Virus record (IMG/VR): IMGVR_UViG_3300047510_001751 | Coordinates: 96,001-160,000 of that record | Strand: one strand, 5' to 3' | DNA: 64,000 bases | Origin: a virus | In this document: piece after piece, positions 36,957 through 58,457 of the stretch | Position numbering within the stretch: the stretch's first letter is position 1 | Layout of the letters: each line of letters opens with the position of its first letter | Position numbers and translations under genes: made by a program | Notes under the pieces: generated by a model | What the model was told of the DNA's origin: nothing | The model's input: only the letters and a program-made list of their open reading frames with translations | The model's database searches: none

Positions 36957-39900
36957 TCAAACCGAGTAAGGAATGACATCATTTCCTGAATCTATAACAT
37001 TAGATCCAGATATTACTGTACAACCAGTAAAGGATGTTGAAGTTTTTCCTGTATAGGAAATAACAGTGTATTGAGTAGAAGAACCTTGGAATAATCGGCC
37101 ATTTGTCGGGAACTTAGAAGTATTGCCAACTACAGTTAAAATATTTGTTACTGAAAGATCAGTTGAAACAGATAATACAACTGGATTTTGAATTGTTGGT
37201 ATTGCTAAATTAAAACGATCTCCAGATAAAGTAATTGCTGAATTTTCTCTTTCTATAAAATCATTTATAGTAACTAATGGATACATCATTGAAAGTTCTT
37301 CAATTGTATTGGCAGTAGATAGCAAACCAGTGTCAACAAATCTATTTCCTTCGTATGTTCCAAAATTAAATCCAGCATTTATTGAATAATATGAAGTATA
37401 AAATTCATCAATTATAATAGCTTTATTTTGTACTTCTACTATTCCGCTGTTTCTGGTCAATACTTCATTTATAGGATCTTCTAAAATTACTTCTCCTGTT
37501 CTTGTAAGAATAACATTATCTAATATAATTGATTCCAAATAATAATCTAAAGTTCCTGTTTTATAGAACCTAGTTACATCAGCATTTTTAGCTAACTTAG
37601 AAGATAATAGATTTGATAATGTGTATACAGTTAATGGAACGTCTAATTCAGTTGTAATTGTATTAGACGATTGAATATATGTATTATCAGCATATAAATT
37701 ATGATTTAATTTTATTTCCCTAGAAATAGGATCAGATAAAATAGTAGTTAATGTAGATACTACAGATAAAGCATTTGCTGCTAATATAGTAATATTAGTT
37801 GATTCCACTAAATTAGTGTTATCTAAACCAATATTAACAAAGTTTGTAATTAATCTATCGCTAGTTACTAAAGAAGTGCTAAGTACACTAGATACAGAGC
37901 TAAAGGTATAATCAACTTCTGTTGTAATTGTGGAAGAAGTAATTATATCTAATTCTAAGTTAATCGATTGTACTGTTGTAATTTCTTTGTCTGTCTCACC
38001 AGACATTTGAACATTAACAGCATTCGATACATTTAATACTCCTGCTTCAGCAAGTGTAGAAACATAACTTTGAGTCGAGTAAATATTTGTGACAATATTA
38101 TATGATGTTGGGGGAATTATAATTATTTCCTTAATAACATCAATTTCTTTTACATTAGGTATTTCAAAGTTATGTTGAGTATTAATTTCTCTCGAAACAT
38201 CCTCTACTACATTTACTTCAGCAATTAATGAAATTGATTGTATTAATACAGTAGGTTGTGGAATGACCGTAGAAGTAACTTCGGTAGTAAATATAGTTGT
38301 AGGTCCAACAGGAACTATAGAAATTAGTTCTGGTAAATGTCTCAAATAATCACCAGCTTGGTGAGTTATTGCTGTTGTTCCAGCAGCTCCTCTCTCCACT
38401 CCAAGAAAACGATCAGAAAGCTTTTTAGCATATCTAACAATTTCCTTGCCGATAAGAAGCCTACTAGCATCAGGGAATCTTCTGGTATCAGGAATATAAA
38501 CAATAGTATCTGTTAAAGATAATGGGGCGTCTAAGAAAGCACCAATATCATTTGTAGCATCGGAAGGAATTTCAATAATAGCATTATTTAAAATTTTATT
38601 AATGTTTAAAGTAATTTCTTTATCAATAGAAGATATTGTGGAAGAAGAAACAATATCTGCTGGAATATCAATAATAGAAGTAATTTCTCTTGATACTGTA
38701 TATTGAAGAGCCTCAGCAATCAAAGTTTTCGAATCAATTAAAATTTCTGTATCAAATTTTTTCTGAGCAGTTGCCAAAATTTTTGGCTTTGGTGTTATAA
38801 TTTGAGTAACAAATCTTTGTAATTCTTGATTATCTACTAACCCACTGAGAGTAATAAGAGAAAAGACTCCGATTGCTGCTGGACCATCACCAGAAATAGT
38901 TATAGTAGAAATTGTACTATACTCAGTTGTAATAGTTACACTAGAAGAAATGTTTAGTACAGTTGATGAATCAATTTTTCTACCAAATTGTTTAATTCTA
39001 TTATATCCTCTAGCTACAACAACCTTGGGCGGTTGAGTATACCCAGAACCCCCATCAATTAATACAATATCAAGTATTTGGCCCCCGTAAGCTATTACCT
39101 CGGCCTTAGCTCCTCCGCCATTTCCGTCAACTGGAATAAAGTAAACTTTTGGTGTTGTGTAATATTGATACGCTGTTGGTTGTAATAAAACACCCTTCTC
39201 AAAATAAAGTTGTAAATCTCTCTTATTATATTCAATATCTGAAACATTCAAGGAACTAATTGAGCCATCTTCAAAATCTACATTAGCAGTAATACTTAAT
39301 CCTTCGCCCCTTGTAATGCCTTCATAATTTGTAGACCTTACTTTAGTATAAATCTGATTTGAAATATATTCTGACGGATTGTAATTTCGTGTGTTAACAA
39401 AATTAGGCAAAGATACTATTTCACGGTAATCAAATTCTCCATCAATTTGAATTTTATCTCCAGGATATAAATTAGCATTTAATACATTTTTTTCCAACCA
39501 AGCATCATCGCCTAATTTAGTATCAAACAACCAAGCTGGAATATTTCTTTTTAATATTCTAGTTCCTTCAGAATCAACTTCGTAACTATACTCAATAGAA
39601 TCTACATTGTTTAATGGATACTCTTTATATTGTGTAGTTACTTGGGGAACAAAAACTGGATCACTTGACAATACATTAATTTCTCCATAATAAGGACCAA
39701 AAACATCGACATAATAATATTTTTGTATATTTGTGGATGCCGATAATTCCCAAGTAATAATATTGTTAAAAGATCCATTATTTTGAACAGGATCGACCTC
39801 ATAGTTTTGGTTGTAATATGTTCCTGTGTAATCAGTAACAAAAATTCTTCCAAAAACAGAAGGATTTGAATCTAATTGATAATAATATAAAGATGTAGTA

Positions 39901-42900
39901 TCGTTTGGAACAATCCAAGAAATTGTTCCTGTAGATTCTCCATTATTGGTAATATTTTCTGTTACAGCGATTTTATTTCCAAATCCATCGTCTTTAACAA
40001 TAGATACAGAACTTGGAGAAGTGATATTTAAATCTAATGTATTATAGGCAGCAATAAAAATAATTGGATTTGGATCTGTAGGTCTTCCTACATCAATAAA
40101 TGAAGTTCCATTATATGAAATATTATATGGGGTAGTCTCAATATTTTGTGGTTCTAACCTATCTAAAATATAGAAAGGTCTTCCATCAGAATTTACATTA
40201 AATGATACTGTGTTTCCTTGTCTAAGTGTTATTGTAGAAGAAGCCAAATTTTGTGTTGGATTTGCTGGATTGGTGACAACCCAATCATTTACATCGACAG
40301 GAAAAGCAACATCATAATTATAACTAGCTGTATCTAATTGTTCAACTAAAATAACAGATTCTGTAAATTCTTCGGTGTTTATAATTTTTAAATCAGGATC
40401 CGACAAATCTATAGTATCAGATAAATTATGATTTATCAAATATACAATAATTTCGTCATTTGATATTTTATTATATCCTCGTATATAACCTAATGTATTT
40501 TCTCCTTCATTTAAAATAATTTTATCGGTAGATAAAAATGTATATAAATCACTAAACGTCTGATAAACGTTATTGCCAACAATCGTTAGATTAATTGAAT
40601 TATAGTAAGTATCTGGCTCAAAATCATAGAACGTTAATGTTTTTGGAAGATCTCTTCCATAAGCCAATATAATAGAAACTTGTTGATAAATTATTTCGCC
40701 AGATTCAGAAATATATTTTTGAAGAGGATTTGTGAATGTAATATTAGGTCCTACAATTTGATAGGCATCTCCCTCTCTTTGTAAAACACCATCAATAATA
40801 ACAAAAGCATATAGTGGCTCATCAATTTTCTTTACTCGATTTTCTATTTCATCTAAAATTAAGTATGGACCACCACCTCTAAATTCAATCAGTTTATTTT
40901 CAATCGTAAATCTTTCGTAATTGCCAATTGTGTAAATAAAACACTTTTCATTTCCTTTTAGTTCAGAGGGAACATCGTTAACATATGGATCTTCTTGATC
41001 TATAGGAGCGGAAGAAAAAACAATCTTATCTGTTACATTAAGATCTTCTGATCTTAAAATATAATATGAATTGCCAAACTGAGTGTCTGCCGAAGACTTA
41101 GCATTTTGAATAACACCATTAAGAGTTACAATTAAATTTTCATTTTGTTCGGTTTTGACGATATTATTATCTTCATAATATAAATCAAATTCTTTCTTGA
41201 TACCATCAAATTGATTAGCTATTGATTTAATTTTTTTAAAATAGCGAGAATTTAAAGAACTATTTTTGAATTTAATTGCTCTTCCGTAAAATCTTTGAGC
41301 AGCAACTTCCTGCCCCTCAACAACTCTAGTTCCAAATGGAGGTTGAGAAAATTCAATATTAGTACCAGAAATAGTATATGATTTTCCTGGCTCTTGTAAG
41401 ACCCCATCCAGAGTTACAATCAATTGCTGAGAATTGTTTAAAAATAATGGTAAACCATTTTTAGCATCAATTAATGTAAATTGTGTAGTTCCCACAACTT
41501 TGCCAGTATTGGGATCAAAATCTCCGTTAAATTCTGGAGATAATGTTACTTCGTAAGCTAATGTTTCAGATGAATCAAAAGTATCTACTGAAACAGCACC
41601 CAATCCTCTTTCTACAAGTAAAGACTCGTATTTTATGTAAGAAGTAGTAATATATTTTTTAGTTTCGATTACTGTAATATTAATTGGACCAAGACTGATA
41701 GAACTATACGTTTCTATAGTTTTTTGTTCGGATGGCATCGTTATTGAGCTATCCGTTTCAATTAATACTTCACCAAATAATTGGAAACCAGCTGGGTGAG
41801 TAGTTTCTTTAATTAAATCTTTCCATATTTGAATTGGAGTTTTAGATTTAATTACATAAGAATAATCTTGATAAAAATAAGAATCTAATAATTTTTGTGA
41901 GTTAGCTCCAATTTTTCCTTTATCAGAAGAATAAAATCCTAGATTATCGTAATACGATCTGATATCAGAATTAAATTCTGTAGAAATTTGAGCAACTAAT
42001 GTAGCAGTTCTATTATTATCTTTTCCTACAATAGTATAATTATCTTCAAATATACCCTCAATGTTCTCTACTTTTAGGAGATTGCTACCTGCTCTCCAAC
42101 CATTTTTTGATACTTTTGCTTTTGCTCCTGTAAATGGTTGAACAATAAATTCTCCAGGGTAAAAATCATAATCATTAAAATCTTTTAATAGAAATGTTGT
42201 AGTTGATTTATATAATGGCGTGGTTGTTTTATCAGCATTAAAATAATATCCATTATTTACAATTGTGATATTTTGAGGTACGCCAATGTTGTCAGATTCT
42301 AAAAAGACATTCAAATCAGATTCAACTATTTTTACTGAAGGTTTTTGATCAAATTTGCCTCCATTTAAAACAATAATTGAAGTTATTTTGCCACCTTCTT
42401 GAATACATTTAAAGTTGTATTCAGAAGATGAATTAGTAATAATTGCTTTTGGTTTTGAATAATTTATTCCAGGTTCAATAATATTAAAACCAACAACAGT
42501 ATTGTTTAAGGTATCGTAAATGGGATCTACGATACACTCGTATACAGAGGAAGGAAGAATACCATCAATAGTTGGTATTCTTTTATAATTTTGTCCAGTG
42601 TTGGTAATTTTTATGCTATTGATTTTTCCAATAGCAAAAGGAGATGTGGTTGTATATGTAATTTGTCCTGAACCATCATATTCTGGTGTAGATGATAGAG
42701 TATAAACAATTTTATTATTAGTTACATAACTTACTGATTTTTCTCCAATTAAAGGATCATCTACAATTTTTAAAAATGAATTATTGGTATTAACGTCGGG
42801 AGATACTTTGATGAAATAAAAATAATTACTAAAATTAATTCTTTTTCTTTCTGTAAAACTATTATTAGATATATTTGGACCAAATCCTAATTTTATAGTT

Positions 42901-45900
42901 ACAAAAGACCCAGGATTTCCTGGGGAAATAGTACTTACAAATTTTTCTTCCGTGAAAATATTGTAATTTGAGCTAGCAGAAAAATCTAAATAAGTGCTAG
43001 CCATTGAAAAATGACTAACATCAAATTTATATTTGTAGTATTTTTGAATCTGTATAATAGGATTAGTTATTAAATTATCTTCAGATCCCTTAGAAAATTC
43101 CAAATTAAATTCTGGCTCTTCTACAGTTTTGATTGTTACCAGTTTAGCTGGTGTACTAGAATCAAAGAAAATAGAACTTTGTAATATTTTTACTGGAGAT
43201 GTTGTTCCGTAATCATAAGATACAAAAATTTGCTTCTTAAATTCATCATATGAAATAATATATGGAGTATTAACTTGATCACCAAATGGTCTGTAATTTT
43301 GATCAAATCTATAATTTCCTTCAAATAAAGAAACTGATAACCCGTCAAAATGATTTGATGGTCTTGTTCCTTTTTGTCCTCTTTCTACTCGAACAAGTTT
43401 TTCTTCTATACTAACGCTACTAATTTTTACAATTTCTTCGTTTAATTTTAAATAATCTCCAATTGATAAATTATTAATATTAGATAATTTTAACAAAGAA
43501 TTACTAGCAGAAAAACCTACGTGATCGACAGCAATGTAAAGTCTTTGCTCATTACCTGTATTAGATAATCTATTAAGATCTTCATCCGATACAGTTAAAA
43601 CATCTCCAGGTAAGTAACCAATACCTTTATTTGTTATAGTTACTTTTCTAACTGGACCATAGCCTAAACCATCAATATTTGAAATTTCTATTGTTGCTCT
43701 GGCATTATTTGGATTACCTGAAAGTCCCAATCCATCTCTTGCTTTCGTAGAATCTTGAAAAATTAATTCTACATCCTCGTAAGTAGCAAACGAATAATCT
43801 GCTCCGCTGTTTAAAATGTCAGCACTTCCTATTCCTTTATCAATAATACGAGAAGAATGTGTTACCGAATTTAAAATAGCTGTTTGATATAATCTTTTTC
43901 TTACAAAATAAGTCGTTTCAGTTAAATTATCATTTGGTAAAACATCAACATTAATTTTATCGCCAATAGCAACATTGTGATTTTCGTTAGTTTCTAAAAT
44001 AGCAACTTTATCGTCTATTTCAAAAATGTTCAGATTTTTGCTTAAAGAAAATTTACTTATAATTTTTGATCTGGAAGTATCTCCTAAGTTACTACTTTTT
44101 AAGAAATATGTGTTGTCAACAATAAACTCTCCACTAATTACTTTTATTTTTAATGAATTTTGACGTAAAATTCCTTCTAAAACTTCTCCTACAGCAATGT
44201 TAGAATTACTCTTGCCTTTGCCGTCAGTTAATGTTAAAATAGATCCTTTGGTAAAGGTAGAGTTTTTATCTAAAATTAATGTTAATACTTCAGTAGAAGA
44301 CGAAATAGGATCAGTTAAATTAAATTCGCCAGAAACATTTCGTAAGACAAATTCATCGTCATTTAACACATCTCCAATTAGTACACCACCAGCTTCATTT
44401 CCATCACTGTGGAGTTGAGTAATTGTATCCCCTTCAAACAAATATGCTATATTGGTAGTTCTTATTTGAATTGCTTTTGTTTGTTCTGATTCTAAAGAAA
44501 CAACATCTTTACCTTCTACCGAAGAAACAATAGCTTCAGCTCCAGAACCTTCCGTTAAAAAGTCATTAATTGAAACAAATGAATTAACAGAGAAATTTTC
44601 TGGTGAGTTGTAAATAGTGGCTTTAGAAACATTACCCGATTTTACGTCTTTAATAAAGCCAAAAAATTCAGCGCCATTTTCTTCAAAATCAGAAGTCTTT
44701 AATCTTTTTACATTTACTGGAATATCATCTTGAGAAATTTTAGAATTGTAATTAGAATCTACTGGCAACGAGTAATAATTGCTTCCCAAAACATAAGGGA
44801 AAATGGGAGTATTATTTGAATCTATTGAAAGGAAATAAGCATATACTCCATTTGGATAATCTGGGGTTACACAAAATCTTCCATTATTTTGATCTAACTC
44901 AAGTTTTCCTGATTGTACACTAGGAATCCATACATAATCATCAATAAAAGATCCTAATGGATATTGAGAAATGGCGGGGCCGTTTAATCTAGAATTTCTT
45001 AATTGATAGCCACTAGATAACCTAGCAATAGAAGAACTACTGTTTACTGGATTAGAATAACCATACGGACCATAAATTGGATTGCCATCATAAGCATACC
45101 CAATAATAGGAGAATGCTTCAATGTAGCGGTTTCTTCATAAACAGAAGTTAAGTTATCACTCAACCTTCTTCTTAAAACTACAGGATTTGCTACTACACC
45201 ATAACCATAATTTTTTGAACTGTCAAAATTTGGGAAAGCACCTGAATTATTTGTGTCTAAAGATGTTTTAACATTTTCATATCTATTTTTTACCCATCTT
45301 TTAATTTTTGCTGATGCTTGGGCACCTTTTCCTATCGGATCAACAAAAATAGTTACGGATCCTCTAGTGTAAAATCTTCCTCCACTAATTCTTCTACAGG
45401 AATCGATTTTTCCTTCGTTGGTTAAAATAGCTTCATACTCAGCAAAATTGCCTTTTCCTAGTTCATCAATAATTCTAATAATCGGAGGAGAAGAATAATA
45501 TTGTCCAGAATTAACAACATTAATACTGGTAATTCTGCCATCAGTAACAACAGCAGAAAGTTTTGCTCCTTCACCAGAAGTAATTCTAATTACAGGATCA
45601 TCTTCATAATTATCATTTGAAATTAAATTTATGGAACCAACAGTTTGCCCAGATAACGTTGACAATGCTTTATTTGGTTGCTCATTAACTAAAACATAAG
45701 GAGGTGCTTCGTAACCATTTCCTTTACTGTCAATATTAATGGTTTCAATGCCACCAAATTTTACTGAATCAAAATCTTTATAACCAAAAATTGGAGAACC
45801 ATCGACTAAAATACCAACATCTCTAGAAGTAGTCTGATATACTTCAGTTGTAGTAATTGGTTGTTTTCTTATTAGCTTTAAATGTTTTTGATCAGATAAT

Positions 45901-47384
45901 ATCTCAGTAGTTTCTAAAGTTAATAGAACAGAAGCAGACGGATATGAAGATGAACAAATGTAATAATACTGCTCGTCCTCATAAATGGCAGAAATATCTG
46001 CATTTAAATCACCTACCTGTGAATTTACTCCAGGAACAATTGAATTTACTTTTGTGAAATCCGTATTTACAAACCAGCGGATTGAATCAGTTTCTGTACT
46101 ATAAATTATTGGATTTCTAGTTTCGACGCCAGAAGTTTTAACCTGGATTAAATCTCCTGTTTCTGAATATGGATACCCTTGTTTTGGTAAAAGATTGTAT
46201 AAAATTCCTAAAGTAATTAAAGAAACTCCAGATCCCTCTATTGTCGAATAGCTGTATACCTTTTGTCCTTCTGTATGTAACTGTTGAGCAGAACGATCAT
46301 CTATTACGAATTGATTGAGATTTTTTTCGGTGTATTCAAAAATTTCCGAACCAATTTGAATTTTTCCTTGTTTTGGAAATCCTTGGGTGGAAAATACATC
46401 AATTCTATTTCCATTACCATAAGAAGGAGAAATTGTACTTCTTAATGTTGTTTTACCAGCAACTTTAAAAGAACCATTCACTGATGAAGGTTCTAAAACA
46501 ATTTCGTAAATCTCTTCGTTATCTACTTTTCCTACGTATGAAACACTATCAACAACAGCAGAAGCGAATGTAATTGATTTATCAAAATCGTCAATAGATT
46601 GTGTAATTATATTGCCAATTAAATTATTTACATTGCCAGAAACTACCTTGACTTTTAAGGCATATTTGTTGACCCAATCAGATGTAGAAGATTTTAATGT
46701 AAAATCCTTGGGATTGTAAACAGATACTGTTTCTTCTGGGTCTTTTGAAATTATCGAGTTAAAAATAAATTTTATAGATCTCTCAGTACCTTTTGCTTTA
46801 TAAAAATCACTAATATTTTTAATTAATGTTCTTTTGTCTACATTGCCCTTGAGATATTTTTCTGGGAATGCACCAAGATACTCCTGCTCAAAGTTTTTAA
46901 CAAAAGCATACAAAAACAAATTGCTAATGTTGAAAACTTCATCTCCAGTATAATGTGGAGCTGATTGTGTAGTGACAAATTCTGAAGATGTGTATAGATC
47001 TCCTAGCGTAGTGTTGCCACTTACACCTCTCGATACTTCTAAAAATTGTGTGTCTGTTCTTTCTTTGTAAAAACAAATTTCATCACCAATTCGTAAATAT
47101 CCATTTTCTACTGGAAAAGATGTAGCATCTTCTACAACAATAGTTGTTACTGAATTGGAAATTGATGAAACTAATTTTGTTTTTTGGTTTAATAAATTAC
47201 TTTCATAATAATTAATATCACGGTATTTTTCGATATTATGAAGTATGTCTAATGGCTTTCCAGTAGATTCTAACTGCTCGTAGTATTTTTCTACGAACGT
47301 GCTAAATTTATCGTATTCAGATGATATAAACCCTGGTAATTGATTTTCAATTAGGGTTGAAATTTTTCTTATCTTTTCGGCCAT
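36957..47384 (-). CDS. gp7: Baseplate wedge initiator (3475 aa)
   Basis: LIKNISDFYKAKGT, HSPIIGYAYDGNPIYGPYGY, LDQNNGRFCVTPDYPNGVYAYF, DSYFYQDYSYVIKS..HPAGF; position between gp6 and gp8. Confidence 0.9.
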   Translation of the reverse strand: MAEKIRKISTLIENQLPGFISSEYDKFSTFVEKYYEQLESTGKPLDILHNIEKYRDINYYESNLLNQKTKLVSSISNSVTTIVVEDATSFPVENGYLRIGDEICFYKERTDTQFLEVSRGVSGNTTLGDLYTSSEFVTTQSAPHYTGDEVFNISNLFLYAFVKNFEQEYLGAFPEKYLKGNVDKRTLIKNISDFYKAKGTERSIKFIFNSIISKDPEETVSVYNPKDFTLKSSTSDWVNKYALKVKVVSGNVNNLIGNIITQSIDDFDKSITFASAVVDSVSYVGKVDNEEIYEIVLEPSSVNGSFKVAGKTTLRSTISPSYGNGNRIDVFSTQGFPKQGKIQIGSEIFEYTEKNLNQFVIDDRSAQQLHTEGQKVYSYSTIEGSGVSLITLGILYNLLPKQGYPYSETGDLIQVKTSGVETRNPIIYSTETDSIRWFVNTDFTKVNSIVPGVNSQVGDLNADISAIYEDEQYYYICSSSYPSASVLLTLETTEILSDQKHLKLIRKQPITTTEVYQTTSRDVGILVDGSPIFGYKDFDSVKFGGIETINIDSKGNGYEAPPYVLVNEQPNKALSTLSGQTVGSINLISNDNYEDDPVIRITSGEGAKLSAVVTDGRITSINVVNSGQYYSSPPIIRIIDELGKGNFAEYEAILTNEGKIDSCRRISGGRFYTRGSVTIFVDPIGKGAQASAKIKRWVKNRYENVKTSLDTNNSGAFPNFDSSKNYGYGVVANPVVLRRRLSDNLTSVYEETATLKHSPIIGYAYDGNPIYGPYGYSNPVNSSSSIARLSSGYQLRNSRLNGPAISQYPLGSFIDDYVWIPSVQSGKLELDQNNGRFCVTPDYPNGVYAYFLSIDSNNTPIFPYVLGSNYYSLPVDSNYNSKISQDDIPVNVKRLKTSDFEENGAEFFGFIKDVKSGNVSKATIYNSPENFSVNSFVSINDFLTEGSGAEAIVSSVEGKDVVSLESEQTKAIQIRTTNIAYLFEGDTITQLHSDGNEAGGVLIGDVLNDDEFVLRNVSGEFNLTDPISSSTEVLTLILDKNSTFTKGSILTLTDGKGKSNSNIAVGEVLEGILRQNSLKIKVISGEFIVDNTYFLKSSNLGDTSRSKIISKFSLSKNLNIFEIDDKVAILETNENHNVAIGDKINVDVLPNDNLTETTYFVRKRLYQTAILNSVTHSSRIIDKGIGSADILNSGADYSFATYEDVELIFQDSTKARDGLGLSGNPNNARATIEISNIDGLGYGPVRKVTITNKGIGYLPGDVLTVSDEDLNRLSNTGNEQRLYIAVDHVGFSASNSLLKLSNINNLSIGDYLKLNEEIVKISSVSIEEKLVRVERGQKGTRPSNHFDGLSVSLFEGNYRFDQNYRPFGDQVNTPYIISYDEFKKQIFVSYDYGTTSPVKILQSSIFFDSSTPAKLVTIKTVEEPEFNLEFSKGSEDNLITNPIIQIQKYYKYKFDVSHFSMASTYLDFSASSNYNIFTEEKFVSTISPGNPGSFVTIKLGFGPNISNNSFTERKRINFSNYFYFIKVSPDVNTNNSFLKIVDDPLIGEKSVSYVTNNKIVYTLSSTPEYDGSGQITYTTTSPFAIGKINSIKITNTGQNYKRIPTIDGILPSSVYECIVDPIYDTLNNTVVGFNIIEPGINYSKPKAIITNSSSEYNFKCIQEGGKITSIIVLNGGKFDQKPSVKIVESDLNVFLESDNIGVPQNITIVNNGYYFNADKTTTPLYKSTTTFLLKDFNDYDFYPGEFIVQPFTGAKAKVSKNGWRAGSNLLKVENIEGIFEDNYTIVGKDNNRTATLVAQISTEFNSDIRSYYDNLGFYSSDKGKIGANSQKLLDSYFYQDYSYVIKSKTPIQIWKDLIKETTHPAGFQLFGEVLIETDSSITMPSEQKTIETYSSISLGPINITVIETKKYITTSYIKYESLLVERGLGAVSVDTFDSSETLAYEVTLSPEFNGDFDPNTGKVVGTTQFTLIDAKNGLPLFLNNSQQLIVTLDGVLQEPGKSYTISGTNIEFSQPPFGTRVVEGQEVAAQRFYGRAIKFKNSSLNSRYFKKIKSIANQFDGIKKEFDLYYEDNNIVKTEQNENLIVTLNGVIQNAKSSADTQFGNSYYILRSEDLNVTDKIVFSSAPIDQEDPYVNDVPSELKGNEKCFIYTIGNYERFTIENKLIEFRGGGPYLILDEIENRVKKIDEPLYAFVIIDGVLQREGDAYQIVGPNITFTNPLQKYISESGEIIYQQVSIILAYGRDLPKTLTFYDFEPDTYYNSINLTIVGNNVYQTFSDLYTFLSTDKIILNEGENTLGYIRGYNKISNDEIIVYLINHNLSDTIDLSDPDLKIINTEEFTESVILVEQLDTASYNYDVAFPVDVNDWVVTNPANPTQNLASSTITLRQGNTVSFNVNSDGRPFYILDRLEPQNIETTPYNISYNGTSFIDVGRPTDPNPIIFIAAYNTLDLNITSPSSVSIVKDDGFGNKIAVTENITNNGESTGTISWIVPNDTTSLYYYQLDSNPSVFGRIFVTDYTGTYYNQNYEVDPVQNNGSFNNIITWELSASTNIQKYYYVDVFGPYYGEINVLSSDPVFVPQVTTQYKEYPLNNVDSIEYSYEVDSEGTRILKRNIPAWLFDTKLGDDAWLEKNVLNANLYPGDKIQIDGEFDYREIVSLPNFVNTRNYNPSEYISNQIYTKVRSTNYEGITRGEGLSITANVDFEDGSISSLNVSDIEYNKRDLQLYFEKGVLLQPTAYQYYTTPKVYFIPVDGNGGGAKAEVIAYGGQILDIVLIDGGSGYTQPPKVVVARGYNRIKQFGRKIDSSTVLNISSSVTITTEYSTISTITISGDGPAAIGVFSLITLSGLVDNQELQRFVTQIITPKPKILATAQKKFDTEILIDSKTLIAEALQYTVSREITSIIDIPADIVSSSTISSIDKEITLNINKILNNAIIEIPSDATNDIGAFLDAPLSLTDTIVYIPDTRRFPDASRLLIGKEIVRYAKKLSDRFLGVERGAAGTTAITHQAGDYLRHLPELISIVPVGPTTIFTTEVTSTVIPQPTVLIQSISLIAEVNVVEDVSREINTQHNFEIPNVKEIDVIKEIIIIPPTSYNIVTNIYSTQSYVSTLAEAGVLNVSNAVNVQMSGETDKEITTVQSINLELDIITSSTITTEVDYTFSSVSSVLSTSLVTSDRLITNFVNIGLDNTNLVESTNITILAANALSVVSTLTTILSDPISREIKLNHNLYADNTYIQSSNTITTELDVPLTVYTLSNLLSSKLAKNADVTRFYKTGTLDYYLESIILDNVILTRTGEVILEDPINEVLTRNSGIVEVQNKAIIIDEFYTSYYSINAGFNFGTYEGNRFVDTGLLSTANTIEELSMMYPLVTINDFIERENSAITLSGDRFNLAIPTIQNPVVLSVSTDLSVTNILTVVGNTSKFPTNGRLFQGSSTQYTVISYTGKTSTSFTGCTVISGSNVIDSGNDVIPYSV

Positions 47385-47388
47385 CTAA

Positions 47389-49191
47389 TTACTCGGGATA
47401 AGCAGTAAATTTACTTCTAGCAATATCTACATCCAAATAAACATTACGTAGGGCATTTATGTCGTTAGACAAAGGTTTTGCTCTAACTTCTATACGATTG
47501 TCGTCAAAACTACCTTTTATGATAGTCAAATTATATAAAAGAACTTCGCCTTTTTCATAATTAATAATCCCCAATGAATCATTGAGTGTGATTTTATCAC
47601 CTGTTATAGAATCTAACTTATATAGGACAATTTTTCCAGCTGAATCTTCAAAATACACAGTATCATTAGGATATTCGCTTACGACAAATCCAGATGACAT
47701 CACAGAAGGTCCTTCACAATCAAGATCAAATTCATTTTGATAACAAATTTCATAGAAAAATGTTGAGTTTAAAGATGGAAAGAAATCTTTCCTCATTATT
47801 ACTGAAGTTTGATTTGAATTAATAGATCTATCAGAATCATCTATTACAGAAATAAACTTACTGTATCTAAATTTACCATTAAATTTTTCGGTATCTGATT
47901 GACGAAGATATTGATCTAATCCAGAAATAACTTTGCTACGAATCTCTTCAGGAGACTGAGTAGTTTTTGATCTATCATAATAAATTTTACTAATCATTTC
48001 GACATAAACAATGGAAGGATCTTCAATATCAGCAGTTACAGATCCAACCATATACGGCTTTAATTTTCTAATTATTTCTTGTTTTGTTGTATTTGAGAGA
48101 AGAGCAGTATTTTTTGGCTTAACAACAATTTTGACTTTGCCATATTCTGGATTTCTTGCTTCTTCTCCGCCATATGTTATAATATCAGCAACTGCTGGAT
48201 AAATGTTTTTAACAATGGCACCATAATCTTGAGCAGTTACCGCTCTGTCCTGAGTTCCAAAATACTTAGGAGCATTGTATTTAATTTCATTAATTGTTTC
48301 AATTTCTTCTCCGCCAGCAGCAGCTACTGTATTTGTATTAAAAATACTTATACTTACTGGATAATTACTGTTACGATTAACATCTTCTAATACACCAGCA
48401 AAAGTAAATGATTTCGAACCATTTGTTAAAGAACCATTAGTAATTAAATAACTAACTTCAATAAATTCTCCGTTATCTAACTTCCTACCTAAACTACCAT
48501 CTCCAAAAAATATTTCGTATCTTTCATCTTCAATTTCTTCTACAAAATATACTTTAGAATCTTTTGTTACATTTAAAATATTATTGGAAAATTCGTAAAA
48601 TTCAAATGATGTGCTGTTTTGTGATTCAAAAACTTTAACTCTAATTGTTGATATATCCGCTCCTGGGTTATCAATAATAAATCTTTGAGACTTTACAGCA
48701 GTATTAACTGTATATGAATTTGTTACTAGACTTCCTTCGTAGATAGGAATATTTCTAAAATTAGCAATGTTATTAACTACAGGAGCTTCTTGATCTTCTA
48801 CAACAACATATTGATATAAATTATTATCAAAAATTGTAGTAAACCCAGTTCCTTTCTTCAGAAAAATAACACTTGGGCTACTTCCAGTAAAAGTAACATC
48901 AAAATTGACGTAAGCAATTGGAGCAGTAATTGATTTTGGTTTGTACCCTAATTGCTTCGCTAGAGCCACCACGTTGTCCCTCAAGGTGGCTGAAGACAAG
49001 AATAGCTCATTTACCACCATGTTGGTGTTAAACGCCGTGTAGTAGGTATTATAAGCGAGCAGATCAATAAGAACGCTCAGAGTCGAACCTTCAAAGTCGT
49101 AATCGGTAAAGTCAGACTGCGCTCTCATGTATTCTATGAGAGAAGTTTTAATCTCGTTAAAATCTAGATTGTTAACTTGAACGTAAGACAT
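47389..49191 (-). CDS. gp6: Baseplate wedge subunit
   Basis: LDFNEIKTSL, DYDFEGS.LSVLIDLLAYNTYY, FLSSATLRDNVV, QDRAVTAQDY. Confidence 0.96.
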   Translation of the reverse strand: MSYVQVNNLDFNEIKTSLIEYMRAQSDFTDYDFEGSTLSVLIDLLAYNTYYTAFNTNMVVNELFLSSATLRDNVVALAKQLGYKPKSITAPIAYVNFDVTFTGSSPSVIFLKKGTGFTTIFDNNLYQYVVVEDQEAPVVNNIANFRNIPIYEGSLVTNSYTVNTAVKSQRFIIDNPGADISTIRVKVFESQNSTSFEFYEFSNNILNVTKDSKVYFVEEIEDERYEIFFGDGSLGRKLDNGEFIEVSYLITNGSLTNGSKSFTFAGVLEDVNRNSNYPVSISIFNTNTVAAAGGEEIETINEIKYNAPKYFGTQDRAVTAQDYGAIVKNIYPAVADIITYGGEEARNPEYGKVKIVVKPKNTALLSNTTKQEIIRKLKPYMVGSVTADIEDPSIVYVEMISKIYYDRSKTTQSPEEIRSKVISGLDQYLRQSDTEKFNGKFRYSKFISVIDDSDRSINSNQTSVIMRKDFFPSLNSTFFYEICYQNEFDLDCEGPSVMSSGFVVSEYPNDTVYFEDSAGKIVLYKLDSITGDKITLNDSLGIINYEKGEVLLYNLTIIKGSFDDNRIEVRAKPLSNDINALRNVYLDVDIARSKFTAYPE

Positions 49192-49584
49192 TTATCGGGT
49201 TCTCTCTAAAAAGAAGGTAATGGATACAGGAACATCATCTCTTCCAGTAATTTCAAATACTAATTCTACATCAAATCCGTTATTATCAAAATTTGGATTT
49301 GTTGATAATGAAAGTATACTAATTCTAGGTTCGTAAAATCTCAACGTATTTTGTATTTCAGTATTTACCAAAGAAGCAGTACCAAAATCTAATGGTTCAA
49401 ATAATAATTCGGACAGAGAAGACCCAATACGAGAATCAAAAAATCTTTCTCCTCTATTTGTCAACAACAAATTAATAATCGCCTGTTTAATGGCAGCCTC
49501 ATCCTTTAATACAGTAAGGTCTCCTGTAATAGGATGAGGCTTAAACGTAATATTCAGATCTTTGAAAGTCTGAAAAGTAGGCAT
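49192..49584 (-). CDS. gp25: Baseplate wedge subunit (gp25 family)
   Basis: FKDLNITFKPHPITGDL, AIKQAIINLLLT.RGERFF, YEPRI. Confidence 0.95.
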   Translation of the reverse strand: MPTFQTFKDLNITFKPHPITGDLTVLKDEAAIKQAIINLLLTNRGERFFDSRIGSSLSELLFEPLDFGTASLVNTEIQNTLRFYEPRISILSLSTNPNFDNNGFDVELVFEITGRDDVPVSITFFLERTR

Positions 49585-55111: not shown

Positions 55112-55206
55112 AGCATAGCAACAACAACCCCACCAGTCAAGGGGCAGTGGACACTAGACAAACTGGCACACAACCCCTTGACAAACACTAAAATACCCTC
55201 TAGATT
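55112..55206. promoter_or_regulatory. Divergent sigma70-like promoter pair around one pseudo-palindromic motif
   Basis: Minus: TTGACT(55140-55135)-N17-TATGCT. Plus: TTGACA(55178-55183)-N17-TAGATT. Motif at 55147-55170. Confidence 0.7.
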
Positions 55207-55460
55207 GTAGTCTAGAGGGTATAATATACTACTCTTGAGTAGTATAATCTATATCTACTACTATACTATAATCATCATACTCTAATTCTTTATTCTTTAT
55301 ATCATATTCTTCTAATTCATTCTTTATATAATCTTGAAAGGTTAATGTATTAGACATATGATTAAAGATTAAAGTTTAATTTTGAAATTATCTTAAAATT
55401 GAAAAAAGTGAAAAATCTTAATTATTGAGTTTTTAAGATTTTTCACTTTTTGGGATTCTC
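55194..55460. other. Structured AT-rich non-coding block
   Basis: Inverted repeats at 55194-55221 (11 bp), 55225-55246 (10 bp) and 55403-55451 (19 bp perfect); ATTCTTTATA twice. Confidence 0.75.
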
Positions 55461-56577: not shown

Positions 56578-56805
56578 TCAAACGGTCACAATTTGAAGAG
56601 TTTGGTCTTCTTTGAGTGCTCGATTGAACAAACGACCCACACTTTGGTGGTTTTCGATAGCATTTTCCACAGTTTCTACAAAATTACCGTTCATATCACG
56701 GTAGTTATAGCTATTACCACTCTTAAATGTAATAGTGACAATGTTATCACTATCTACACTAACAGTCTGAATAGCAGTAGAATCAATGTTGTTAATGGTT
56801 TTCAT
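56578..56805 (-). CDS. KTSC-like small protein
   Basis: STAI..V......V.ITFKSGNSYNY......SVGRLFN matches the KTSC pattern as I recall it. Confidence 0.6.
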   Translation of the reverse strand: MKTINNIDSTAIQTVSVDSDNIVTITFKSGNSYNYRDMNGNFVETVENAIENHQSVGRLFNRALKEDQTLQIVTV

Positions 56806-56814
56806 GTTTATCAA

Positions 56815-56932
56815 TTAAAGGTTAAAGTTTAACTTTGAAGTTTTTGGAAAATCTCAAAAACCTTAAATTTCAAGTTTTTGAGTTTTTTAAGTTTTTGGGA
56901 TTTCTCGATTTCTGAGATTTCCGAACTTCATG
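56815..56932 (-). other. Structured 5' leader homologous to 55362-55460
   Basis: Shared 26-nt and 14-nt flanks; 9-bp stem at 56853-56882. Confidence 0.65.
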
Positions 56933-56937
56933 AATAC

Positions 56938-56995
56938 AGTATAGGGCATTTGCCCAGGGTTGTCAAGGGGGCTGTGCCAGTCCCTGAACTGTCCT
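56938..56995 (-). promoter_or_regulatory. Consensus early promoter TTGACA-N17-TATACT plus upstream motif
   Basis: -35 at 56961-56966, -10 at 56938-56943, motif at 56973-56994. Confidence 0.9.
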
Positions 56996-57002
56996 CCGAG
57001 AC

Positions 57003-57271
57003 TTTTCCACAGGGCTGTGGAAAACTTTGAGTGTCTTAGAGTGGTATCGGTGATACTGTCAAGCCCCTGTGTGCCACTTTGAGAACTGGCATATTTCGGC
57101 TTGACTTTCGAGTGGTGGCGGGCTTAGACAACAACACCTCCGTAGATTTCCATGCTTTCAGCAACATTTAACGAAAGCATTTGTCAGCGATTCAAAACAC
57201 TCAACTATGTTTATTTTAACATTTATTAATAACATAGTTTTCCACAGGTTTTTCCACAGGGTTGTGAAAAA
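57003..57271. promoter_or_regulatory. Cluster of five DnaA-box matches flanking an AT-rich stretch; putative origin or DnaA-titration site
   Basis: TTTTCCACA at 57003, 57238 and 57250; TGTGGAAAA at 57016; TGTGAAAAA at 57263. Confidence 0.6.
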
Positions 57272-57314
57272 CTCAAAGGTATCGTTGACAACAACCTAGT
57301 AATATCAATAGTTC

Positions 57315-57797
57315 TCATAATGCGGAAACTAAGAGTGTTTTCTCATTAACTTGCTTATACAATTCAATTAAATCATTTTGATACCAGTATCGTTTATCAT
57401 GATTGCCCATCTGTTCTTTCATTTGAATACGAATCTCTTCCCATTGTTCAATAGTAGTATTCATATCAACTTCATCAACGTAATTAATTACAAATCCAAT
57501 AAACTGATGAATATAGTCCATTACATGATGAAAGTCTGTATCTCTCCAATACTCACAAAGAATAGTATTAATTGTTTGTGGAGTTTTAAGAAGATCAATA
57601 AGATGATAGATCTCAATACGTTCAAACTTATATTGATAGGTAGAAGAATACCCATTATCTTCATACCGTTTAACTGTATCTTTCCAATCTTTTAGTTCAC
57701 GATCATAAAGACGAAAAGGATTGTAGTCTTGATAAGAAAGTTCATTCGTGATCATTTCCCATTGAGGGAGGCTGAGCCAGATGTTACGACGAGACAT
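57315..57797 (-). CDS. Hypothetical protein (160 aa)
   Basis: ORF track; TATACT at 57821-57826 and an A/C-rich leader directly upstream; motif at 57856-57876. Confidence 0.8.
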   Translation of the reverse strand: MSRRNIWLSLPQWEMITNELSYQDYNPFRLYDRELKDWKDTVKRYEDNGYSSTYQYKFERIEIYHLIDLLKTPQTINTILCEYWRDTDFHHVMDYIHQFIGFVINYVDEVDMNTTIEQWEEIRIQMKEQMGNHDKRYWYQNDLIELYKQVNEKTLLVSAL

Positions 57798-57887: not shown

Positions 57888-58457
57888 TTATTCCGCTGTT
57901 CCTATATTAACATCAAACACTACTACCCAACGAGGTGTAGTAATAGGTGTAGTCCAATGGAGAATCTTACCTGGGAAGATCATCACATCACCTTCTTTAC
58001 ATTGTGTCGAAGATACAATACCATCAAAGAGAGGATAAGTATTTGATGAATTGTTTGTTGGTAGGAATTTGGTTGGATTAGGTTCTTCTAGATGTAGGAG
58101 ATAGATCCCTGTGAAATCTGATTGATAATGCCTATGAGGATTACAGACTTCATGGGGATCATAATAATTCCACCAGATAGTTTTTACATTAGATTTGACC
58201 AGTTTAACCTTGTTTAGATTAGAATCAAATTCTTGTAGCATCTGGTTAAATGGATTCCAGATAGCATCAGTTACAAACTCTTTGTGGAATAGATCAAAAT
58301 TAACTAGACCACTGGTTGTAATACCTGTACCATTAACTTCACCACGATGAGCACGTTCTTTATCCTTTTCGAGTTTAGGAAGAAGAATATCTTTGTGTTG
58401 TTGGTGATTAGGTACAGATTGATAGAAGAAAAACTCTGGTGTGAATGTGTGAATCAT
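57888..58457 (-). CDS. Putative 2OG-Fe(II) oxygenase (TIGR02466-like)
   Basis: WWNYY....NPHRH..SDFTGIYLL, EGDVMIFPGKILHWT, RWVVVFD. Confidence 0.85.
   Translation of the reverse strand: MIHTFTPEFFFYQSVPNHQQHKDILLPKLEKDKERAHRGEVNGTGITTSGLVNFDLFHKEFVTDAIWNPFNQMLQEFDSNLNKVKLVKSNVKTIWWNYYDPHEVCNPHRHYQSDFTGIYLLHLEEPNPTKFLPTNNSSNTYPLFDGIVSSTQCKEGDVMIFPGKILHWTTPITTPRWVVVFDVNIGTAE

Follow-up and report, generated by a model that had tools for sequence, protein, structure and literature searches.

Does a T4-like cyanophage carry binding sites for the replication initiator of its host and, if so, what purpose could they serve? The question is raised by a stretch of 64,000 nucleotides, referred to here as the window, which corresponds to bases 96001-160000 of the 190,248-bp viral genome IMGVR_UViG_3300047510_001751. 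The virus is a T4-like cyanophage of marine Synechococcus; its genome is ~98% complete, carries psbA and has DNA-level matches to Synechococcus myoviruses only. A first-pass annotation of the window, made from the letters alone, pointed to a cluster of cyanobacterial-type DnaA boxes in non-coding DNA and proposed that the phage either borrows host DnaA for an early origin or titrates it. To our knowledge, no T4-like phage has been reported to use DnaA. Our comparisons place the boxes in a conserved module, and we give a probability of about 0.45 to the reading that this is an early origin or control module, similar to T4 oriE and oriF, which docks host DnaA beside an AT-rich block.

The boxes form two clusters inside a 509-bp non-coding gap (56806-57314) that is flanked by minus-strand early genes and open reading frames (ORFs). 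Cluster A (57003-57024, TTTTCCACA-GGGC-TGTGGAAAA) is a perfect inverted pair, with TTTTCCACA on the plus strand at 57003-57011 and its exact inverse at 57016-57024 on the other side of the GGGC spacer. Cluster B (57238-57271, TTTTCCACA-GGT-TTTTCCACA-GGGT-TGTGAAAAA) consists of two tandem exact boxes at 57238-57246 and 57250-57258, separated by GGT, and an inverted box at 57263-57271, which follows the GGGT spacer. This last box has one mismatch to the cyanobacterial box and still satisfies TTWTNCACA. All five TTWTNCACA matches reported in the first-pass annotation were therefore confirmed, in two groups and in non-coding DNA. A count of the 9-mer across the genome, which had been proposed as a check, gave 8 exact copies compared to ~2.4 expected from composition. 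Four of these lie within 256 bp of one another and the other four are isolated singles. The window itself holds five exact copies, all within 56663-57258. Allowing one mismatch raises the count in the window to 31, versus 29.9 by chance, and therefore the signal lies in the clustering of exact copies. No boxes were found in the other intergenic gaps of the early region. The isolated window copy, at 56663-56671 on the plus strand, had been listed as a sixth box of the element. It is indeed exact, but it lies inside a KTSC-like gene, spanning codons E-T-V-E-N, and is missing from seven homologous genes. We therefore ruled it out as a member of the element, and it is probably a chance occurrence.

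We then asked whether the boxes are conserved, a check that the first-pass annotation had proposed. Several cyanomyovirus genera retain this 9-mer in the syntenic position, with varying flanks, number and orientation; examples are S-PM2, Syn9, S-CAM1, Sf-FR1 and many IMG/VR contigs. The syntenic gap contains three direct boxes in Sf-FR1, two direct boxes in S-CAM1, and two direct boxes plus one inverted box in S-PM2. Syn9 has one direct box, followed by a tandem of two inverted boxes, of which one is exact and the other has a single mismatch. The layout with two clusters recurs in a close relative, L120, which has two direct boxes and one inverted box in the place of cluster A. With the tandem boxes as a 35-nt query, blastn recovered 154 phage records, 103 of which are named Synechococcus phage or Cyanophage. 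Even the more distant contigs that have box clusters share baseplate and early-region genes with this phage, and thus the location is broadly syntenic. In S-PM2, GenBank places tRNA-Leu and tRNA-Asn genes over the module copy (L003:1458-1614; AJ630128 19177-19333). These annotations look spurious, because ARAGORN found no tRNA in the 3-kb locus.

Anchored displays and a 102-copy consensus revealed a common order of elements around the boxes: an operator, a core, 10-11-bp repeat units, an AT-rich block and then the boxes. In the window, the operator (TGTGCCACTTTGAGAACTGGCA, 57070-57092) lies between two back-to-back -35 hexamers, and in 102 related modules the core is likewise preceded by a conserved operator. 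The core (TTGACTTTCGAGTGGTGGCGGGCTTAGAC, plus strand, 57101-57129) is promoter-like with a conserved spacer and an atypical -10 element. Its family consensus reads TTGACtTTCGaTaGGT.GCgtGCTAAG followed by cCAACatctcc, or TTGAC-N15-GCTAAG overall, and it is present as a single copy in the genome. No structure emerged when 95 ungapped core sequences were folded to a consensus RNA. Next comes a variable region on the plus strand (57130-57202) made up of loose 10-11-bp units of the CCGTAGATTT type. Relatives carry one to several such units, of the CAGAGyACCTT or CCGTACATTA type, and the distance from core to first box ranges from 43 to 127 nt among them. The words CAGAG, CTCCG, ACCTT and CATTT are enriched in the variable region, and the units are weak and irregular in this window. 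The region also includes a local hairpin (ATGCTTTC/GAAAGCAT, 57153-57182) with a fold z of -2.1, which is not kept in L120.

The AT-rich block (57203-57239) contains a 9-bp inverted repeat (AACTATGTT...AACATAGTT) and is a candidate DNA unwinding element. The repeat has a fold z of -3.8 (0/200 shuffles), and the 40-bp window starting at 57202 has a dG of -41.2 kcal/mol, with only 0.5% of genome windows being less stable. Hence both the hairpin and the AT-rich inverted repeat abutting the third box, which the first-pass annotation had noted, are real. The block carries a family motif, CCTATrTTTTTTAA (extended, CCTATrTTTTTTAAyCATTT), that is also single-copy in the genome, and in relatives it lies immediately before the boxes. 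Together, these comparisons indicate that the boxes make up the outer part of a conserved module that is present once in the genome.

To obtain a sample that was blind to the boxes, we scanned IMG/VR for the core alone and recovered 91 distinct modules. Within 200 nt downstream of the core, 46 of these have no exact box, 11 have one, 18 have two, 13 have three and 3 have four. Thus, 45 of the 91 modules carry at least one exact box, compared to ~0.003 per module expected by chance. The first box faces away from the AT-rich block in 41 of the 45 box-bearing modules, and the commonest arrangement in the family, two boxes in one direction followed by one in the other ('>><'), accounts for 12 of them and is the type seen in cluster B. 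Among the same 45 modules, tandem boxes are spaced by 3 bp (28 pairs), and convergent boxes are spaced by either 4-5 or 14-15 bp, distances that differ by about one helical turn. The fixed direction of the boxes together with spacers that differ by a helical turn follows a logic of DNA faces rather than one of RNA.

What occupies the slot in modules that lack boxes? We counted the cassettes found after the AT-rich block in 96 modules. DnaA boxes were present in 49 (plus one mixed cassette), a CTWWTGAGAAYC / ATTGAnnnTCAAT repeat in 25, two rarer types in 7 and 4, and other sequences in 10. The rarer repeats are of the GGGTAGTATCC and CACCGAGGGG types. S-WAM2, ACG-2014e, S-CAM4, S-MbCM7 and Sf-CH1b all possess the module without boxes. 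S-RSM4 combines the core with the ATTGA-type cassette and has zero exact boxes genome-wide. Three copies of CTWWTGAGAAYC, often in the form ATTGATTCTCAAT, fill the slot in box-less modules such as those of S-RSM4 (L342:1560-1665), S-WAM2 (L211:700-800) and many IMG/VR loci, L256, L292 and L293 among them. The CTWWTGAGAAYC cassette may mark a phage-encoded factor or a second host factor. Judged by this comparison of sequences, the boxes are an exchangeable add-on to a conserved cassette that is promoter-like and AT-rich.

The identity of the 9-mer points to host DnaA. In line with the first-pass annotation, which named the DnaA-box consensus of Synechococcus oriC, TTTTCCACA is the published cyanobacterial box, bound by DnaA in vitro in Cyanothece (PMC4674748), and Ori-Finder is a further source for it (PMC2275245). 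The phage genome encodes no DnaA DNA-binding (C-terminal) domain, and therefore host DnaA would be the binder. For comparison we used one complete marine Synechococcus genome, MIT S9451, which was reached through psbA. It contains 16 exact boxes in 2.6 Mb, no more than a reversed-word control. The region upstream of its dnaN gene (L204:1120-1480) has a short AT tract and degenerate boxes only, namely GGTGGAAAA, TGTGCAAAA, TTTTCCACG and TGTGGAAGC. The phage sites are therefore of consensus grade, equal to or better than those of the presumed host origin. Taken together, the boxes are predicted to be genuine high-affinity sites for host DnaA. Two small pairs of exact boxes were also seen elsewhere in MIT S9451, at 207.0 kb and 2434.8 kb.

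Several promoter-like elements surround the clusters. After cluster A there is a strong early promoter of the sigma-70 type (TTGACA-N17-TATACT, minus strand, 56938-56966), which matches the consensus at 11 of 12 positions and would drive the KTSC-like gene cluster. A pseudo-palindromic operator of the TGTGCCAG...CTGTCC type (56973-56995) abuts the -35 hexamer, and cluster A is located upstream of both this operator and the promoter. Operators of this kind are generic in early promoters of the phage, and the GGCACA..GGGG-TTGACA arrangement recurs at several of its promoters. On the other side of cluster A, a second minus-strand element (TTGACA-N17-CTAAGA(C), 57033-57062) points at the cluster. 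Its -35 hexamer (57062-57057) is the mirror image of that of the plus-strand core and uses the same operator. L120 does not keep its -10 element, which is non-canonical, and a consensus scan gave no call. The consensus scan did return a promoter-like site, TTGACA-16-AATAGT, on the plus strand at 57285-57312, which runs antisense into the ORF at 57315-57797. The pseudo-palindromic operator-like motif (GTGCCA-N-TTTGAG-N-CTGGCAC, then a G/C-rich run) abuts the -35 hexamer of most early promoters. Besides its copies at 56973-56995 and 57070-57092, it precedes the promoters at 55140, 55178 and 55980, and divergent promoter pairs have it in common.

We favor the reading that the module is an early origin or control element, because its layout of core, short repeats, melt-prone AT-rich block and initiator-type sites is closest to that of T4 origins. 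The proposed mechanism is as follows. The module begins with two back-to-back early-type -35 elements that use a common operator, and the boxes would be the exchangeable outer cassette of this single-copy, cis-acting element of the early region. A transcript made by host RNA polymerase from the plus-strand core would enter the AT-rich block, which it would either open or prime. Two to four DnaA boxes abut this easily melted block directly, and DnaA bound beyond it could help to hold the block open or could stall the polymerase there. The first round of phage replication would thereby be tied to the state of the host initiator. Because motA and asiA are missing from cyanomyoviruses (PMC2984593), an early-type promoter would have to serve. 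A T4-type RNase H is encoded by the phage genome. The Pfam model for the gp59 N-terminal domain has no match in the genome, but it fails to match the control genomes as well and is therefore uninformative. Host-type origins have at least one and usually two boxes that match the species consensus (taken here from PMC4674748), and in the basal unwinding system tandem boxes are spaced by at most 3 bp (PMC8287927); the pair TTTTCCACA-GGT-TTTTCCACA at 57238-57258 is of this form. The block at 57203-57239, among the least stable 0.5% of the genome, fits an unwinding element of the T4 oriF/oriG type. A single theta origin has been predicted for Syn9 (PMC2984593). On this analysis, the module is the best candidate for the unmapped replication start of the phage.

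A number of observations weigh against this interpretation. The first-pass annotation placed a possible plus-strand promoter at TTGACT (57101), and the core does have this good -35 hexamer together with the usual upstream operator of the phage. Its -10 position reads TTAGAC here and TAAGMC in relatives, and a consensus promoter scan was negative. In addition, an ordinary promoter would not need the conserved spacer of the core, which suggests that the core is more than a promoter. The host-type unwinding layout is also absent. DnaA-trios consist of at least three (NAN) units located 0-16 bp 5' of a TGTGG-oriented box and lead into an AT-rich region (PMC8287927). No trios are present at any of the five boxes (chance rate, 0.25 per site), and therefore a host-like unwinding mechanism is unsupported. 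The AT-rich block is on the side opposite to that expected for the tandem pair in host-type unwinding, and the orientation of the tandem pair relative to the block flips between the Syn9 group and the S-PM2 group. About half of the otherwise identical modules are box-less and have other repeats in the slot, and therefore DnaA is not essential to the module. The core and a box cluster are both missing from P-SSM2 and P-SSM4, which are Prochlorococcus phages. Finally, neither this genome nor Syn9 shows an origin signal in its cumulative GC skew, which is monotonic in both because nearly all genes lie on one strand and is thus uninformative. The host-DnaA proposal of the first-pass annotation thus stands in part: the published 9-mer, its syntenic conservation, the lack of a phage DnaA domain and the adjoining AT-rich block speak for it, and the box-less half of the modules and the missing trios speak against it.

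Could the same sites serve transcription instead? This is the main rival to an origin, and we consider it the less likely of the two. E. coli DnaA can repress, activate or terminate transcription, and host DnaA at the phage boxes could act as a roadblock or regulator, making the module an insulator or switch. In such a scheme, cluster A would tune the early promoter that serves the KTSC-like gene cluster, and cluster B would halt minus-strand read-through from the operon of the 2OG-Fe(II) oxygenase as well as the antisense plus-strand transcript. The positions of the clusters fit such roles. Cluster A lies ~40-60 bp upstream of the -35 hexamer of the strong early promoter and just downstream of another -35 hexamer and operator, between two promoter elements of the same direction. 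Cluster B lies just past the end of the upstream operon and downstream of the antisense promoter-like core. In L022 and L120, boxes are located directly upstream of an operator and a TTGAC promoter, and the variable box orientation and alternative cassettes suit a generic role for a bound protein. However, an insulator does not explain why the boxes constantly adjoin the AT-rich block or why a 50-bp core is conserved, no intrinsic terminator is needed or seen at the module, and such sites are missing from the other gaps between early genes. We also considered whether the boxes are bound by some other phage or host protein, with their resemblance to DnaA boxes being coincidental and the sites serving a phage regulator or initiator. 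The unrelated repeats in the same slot of other modules must be read by a factor other than DnaA. Yet nearly every copy, across many genera, has 9/9 identity with the DnaA box of the host family; the tandem pair has the 3-bp spacer of oriC (PMC8287927); and the phage has no DnaA-like domain of its own. We judge this explanation improbable.

The first-pass annotation offered a datA-like decoy as the other use of the boxes, in which replicating phage genomes would soak up or inactivate host DnaA and so stop host initiation. The boxes are perfect-consensus sites of the high-affinity type, better than those upstream of host dnaN, they are amplified with each genome copy, and the phage encodes its own replisome (PMC2984593). 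However, there are only five boxes per genome and half of the relatives have none. In ~45 relatives the boxes are tied to one position in one module beside the AT-rich block, whereas a sink could be located anywhere; this strict tie argues for a role in cis. Moreover, host initiation should hardly matter to a lytic phage once its copy number is high. A pure decoy is therefore unlikely, and we regard the titration model as quite improbable overall. Least probable of all is that the inverted boxes merely form transcript hairpins acting as a terminator, processing site or stability signal, which had been named as an outcome that would refute a role for DnaA. Both clusters in the window can form 9-bp stems, but these hairpins fold no better than shuffled sequences (z of -0.9 to -1.4), and 10 of 22 tabulated box-bearing modules lack an inverted partner. 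Furthermore, both stem arms keep the identical 9-mer with no covariation, no U-tract terminator was called at the boxes, and we obtained neither an Rfam match nor a consensus core fold. Comparative data thus contradict an RNA-only role, and the boxes are best regarded as DNA sites.

The remaining features of the locus provide context. The gap is bounded on one side by a KTSC-like small gene (minus strand, 56578-56805), identified by a weak Pfam KTSC match and a match to phrog_4357, and on the other by an unassigned ORF of 160 amino acids (aa) (minus strand, 57315-57797), with a 2OG-Fe(II) oxygenase gene next at 57888-58457. Cluster B begins 44 bp past the stop codon of the 160-aa ORF. The leader of the KTSC-like gene (minus strand, 56815-56935) lies outside the box module proper and contains phased A/T-tract repeats of GAGATTT and AAAACTT units. 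Comparable leader repeats occur at the equivalent place in Sf-FR1, S-CAM1 and S-PM2, and the leader is probably intrinsically bent DNA or a structured leader. With AATCTTAAG units counted alongside GAGATTT and AAAACTT, the repeats extend over ~120 bp here and ~160 bp in S-PM2 (L003:1170-1330). The baseplate-wedge genes (47389-49584) are ~8 kb away from the box module, and adjoining them is a single minus-strand ORF of 3475 aa (36957-47384), whose product is presumably a giant structural protein of the baseplate or fibre. At 55180-55360, a second promoter of the sigma-70-like kind (TTGACA-N17-TAGATT, plus strand) is directed against the genes and into another tract, which is very AT-rich (GC fraction of ~0.22). 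This tract includes the 40-mer with the lowest stability in the early region. We considered the tract at 55180-55450, with its own plus-strand promoter, as another example of the module and rejected it, because it has no homology and no boxes. Across the whole window, Rfam at gathering thresholds returned no match and ARAGORN found no tRNA.

T4-like cyanophages are among the most abundant marine viruses, and the start site and mode of their replication are unmapped. The T4 origins that are best understood rely on the MotA system, which these phages do not have (PMC2984593, PMC3016281). The module provides a concrete candidate for an origin or control site, and its natural variants with other sites amount to a ready comparative experiment. 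If DnaA does dock there, this would be the first known case of a T4-type phage with its own replisome using the host initiator, and phage replication would be linked to the cell-cycle or light status of the host. A broader proposal, which we put forward tentatively, is that many Synechococcus T4-like phages fire from one early origin with a modular trigger, in which a conserved chassis of promoter and AT-rich block accepts interchangeable initiator-site cassettes and the commonest cassette addresses host DnaA. If so, the start of phage replication would sense the replication, growth or light state of the host, and sister lineages would have swapped in sites for another factor. Our literature searches for DnaA boxes in cyanophages found no description of such an element in the papers that they covered.

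How does the module compare with known systems? T4 oriF (uvsY) and oriG consist of a promoter and a downstream AT-rich unwinding element, where the transcript forms a priming R-loop (PMC3016281). The phage module is likewise a compact non-coding unit of ~100-200 bp in which a promoter-like element fires into a melt-prone AT-rich block, and the replisome and T4-type RNase H are phage-supplied in both. In contrast, the T4 promoters are MotA-dependent (middle mode) and cyanomyoviruses have neither motA nor asiA (PMC2984593). The T4 origins also lack host-initiator sites, and the phage module has its atypical -10 element. T4 oriE, with an early-mode promoter and evenly spaced 12-nt iterons (PMC3016281), resembles the module in its early-type host-sigma promoter context and in having short direct repeats, here between promoter and AT-rich block, whose role is unproven in both. 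The phage repeats differ in being loose units of 10-11 bp in variable number (approximately one to several), no counterpart of RepEA or RepEB was identified in the phage, and T4 has no DnaA boxes.

Cyanobacterial oriC and the basal unwinding system share with the module the same 9-mer, a tandem pair spaced by 3 bp and an adjoining AT-rich region (PMC4674748, PMC8287927). In the phage, by contrast, DnaA-trios are missing, the tandem pair faces away from the AT-rich block, each cluster has only two or three boxes, neither dnaA nor dnaN is linked to them, and the boxes are optional among relatives. The datA locus of E. coli spans ~1 kb, requires its IHF site and works in trans on the DnaA-ATP pool. 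Like the phage clusters, it is a group of high-affinity DnaA boxes outside the chromosomal origin, but the phage boxes are fixed in cis beside an AT-rich block and a promoter-like core. Groups of DnaA boxes next to iterons and AT-rich DNA are a standard feature of plasmids and of some temperate phages, and origins made of a promoter and an unwinding element are a standard feature of T4. Lambda, the P1 replication regions and iteron plasmids recruit host DnaA beside their own iterons and an AT-rich region. These are also mobile replicons with initiator-site cassettes that are exchangeable between relatives, but they encode an initiator (O or RepA) and depend on the host replisome, whereas T4-like phages bring their own. 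What is new here is therefore the combination, in which host-initiator boxes form an exchangeable cassette on a module of a T4-like phage.

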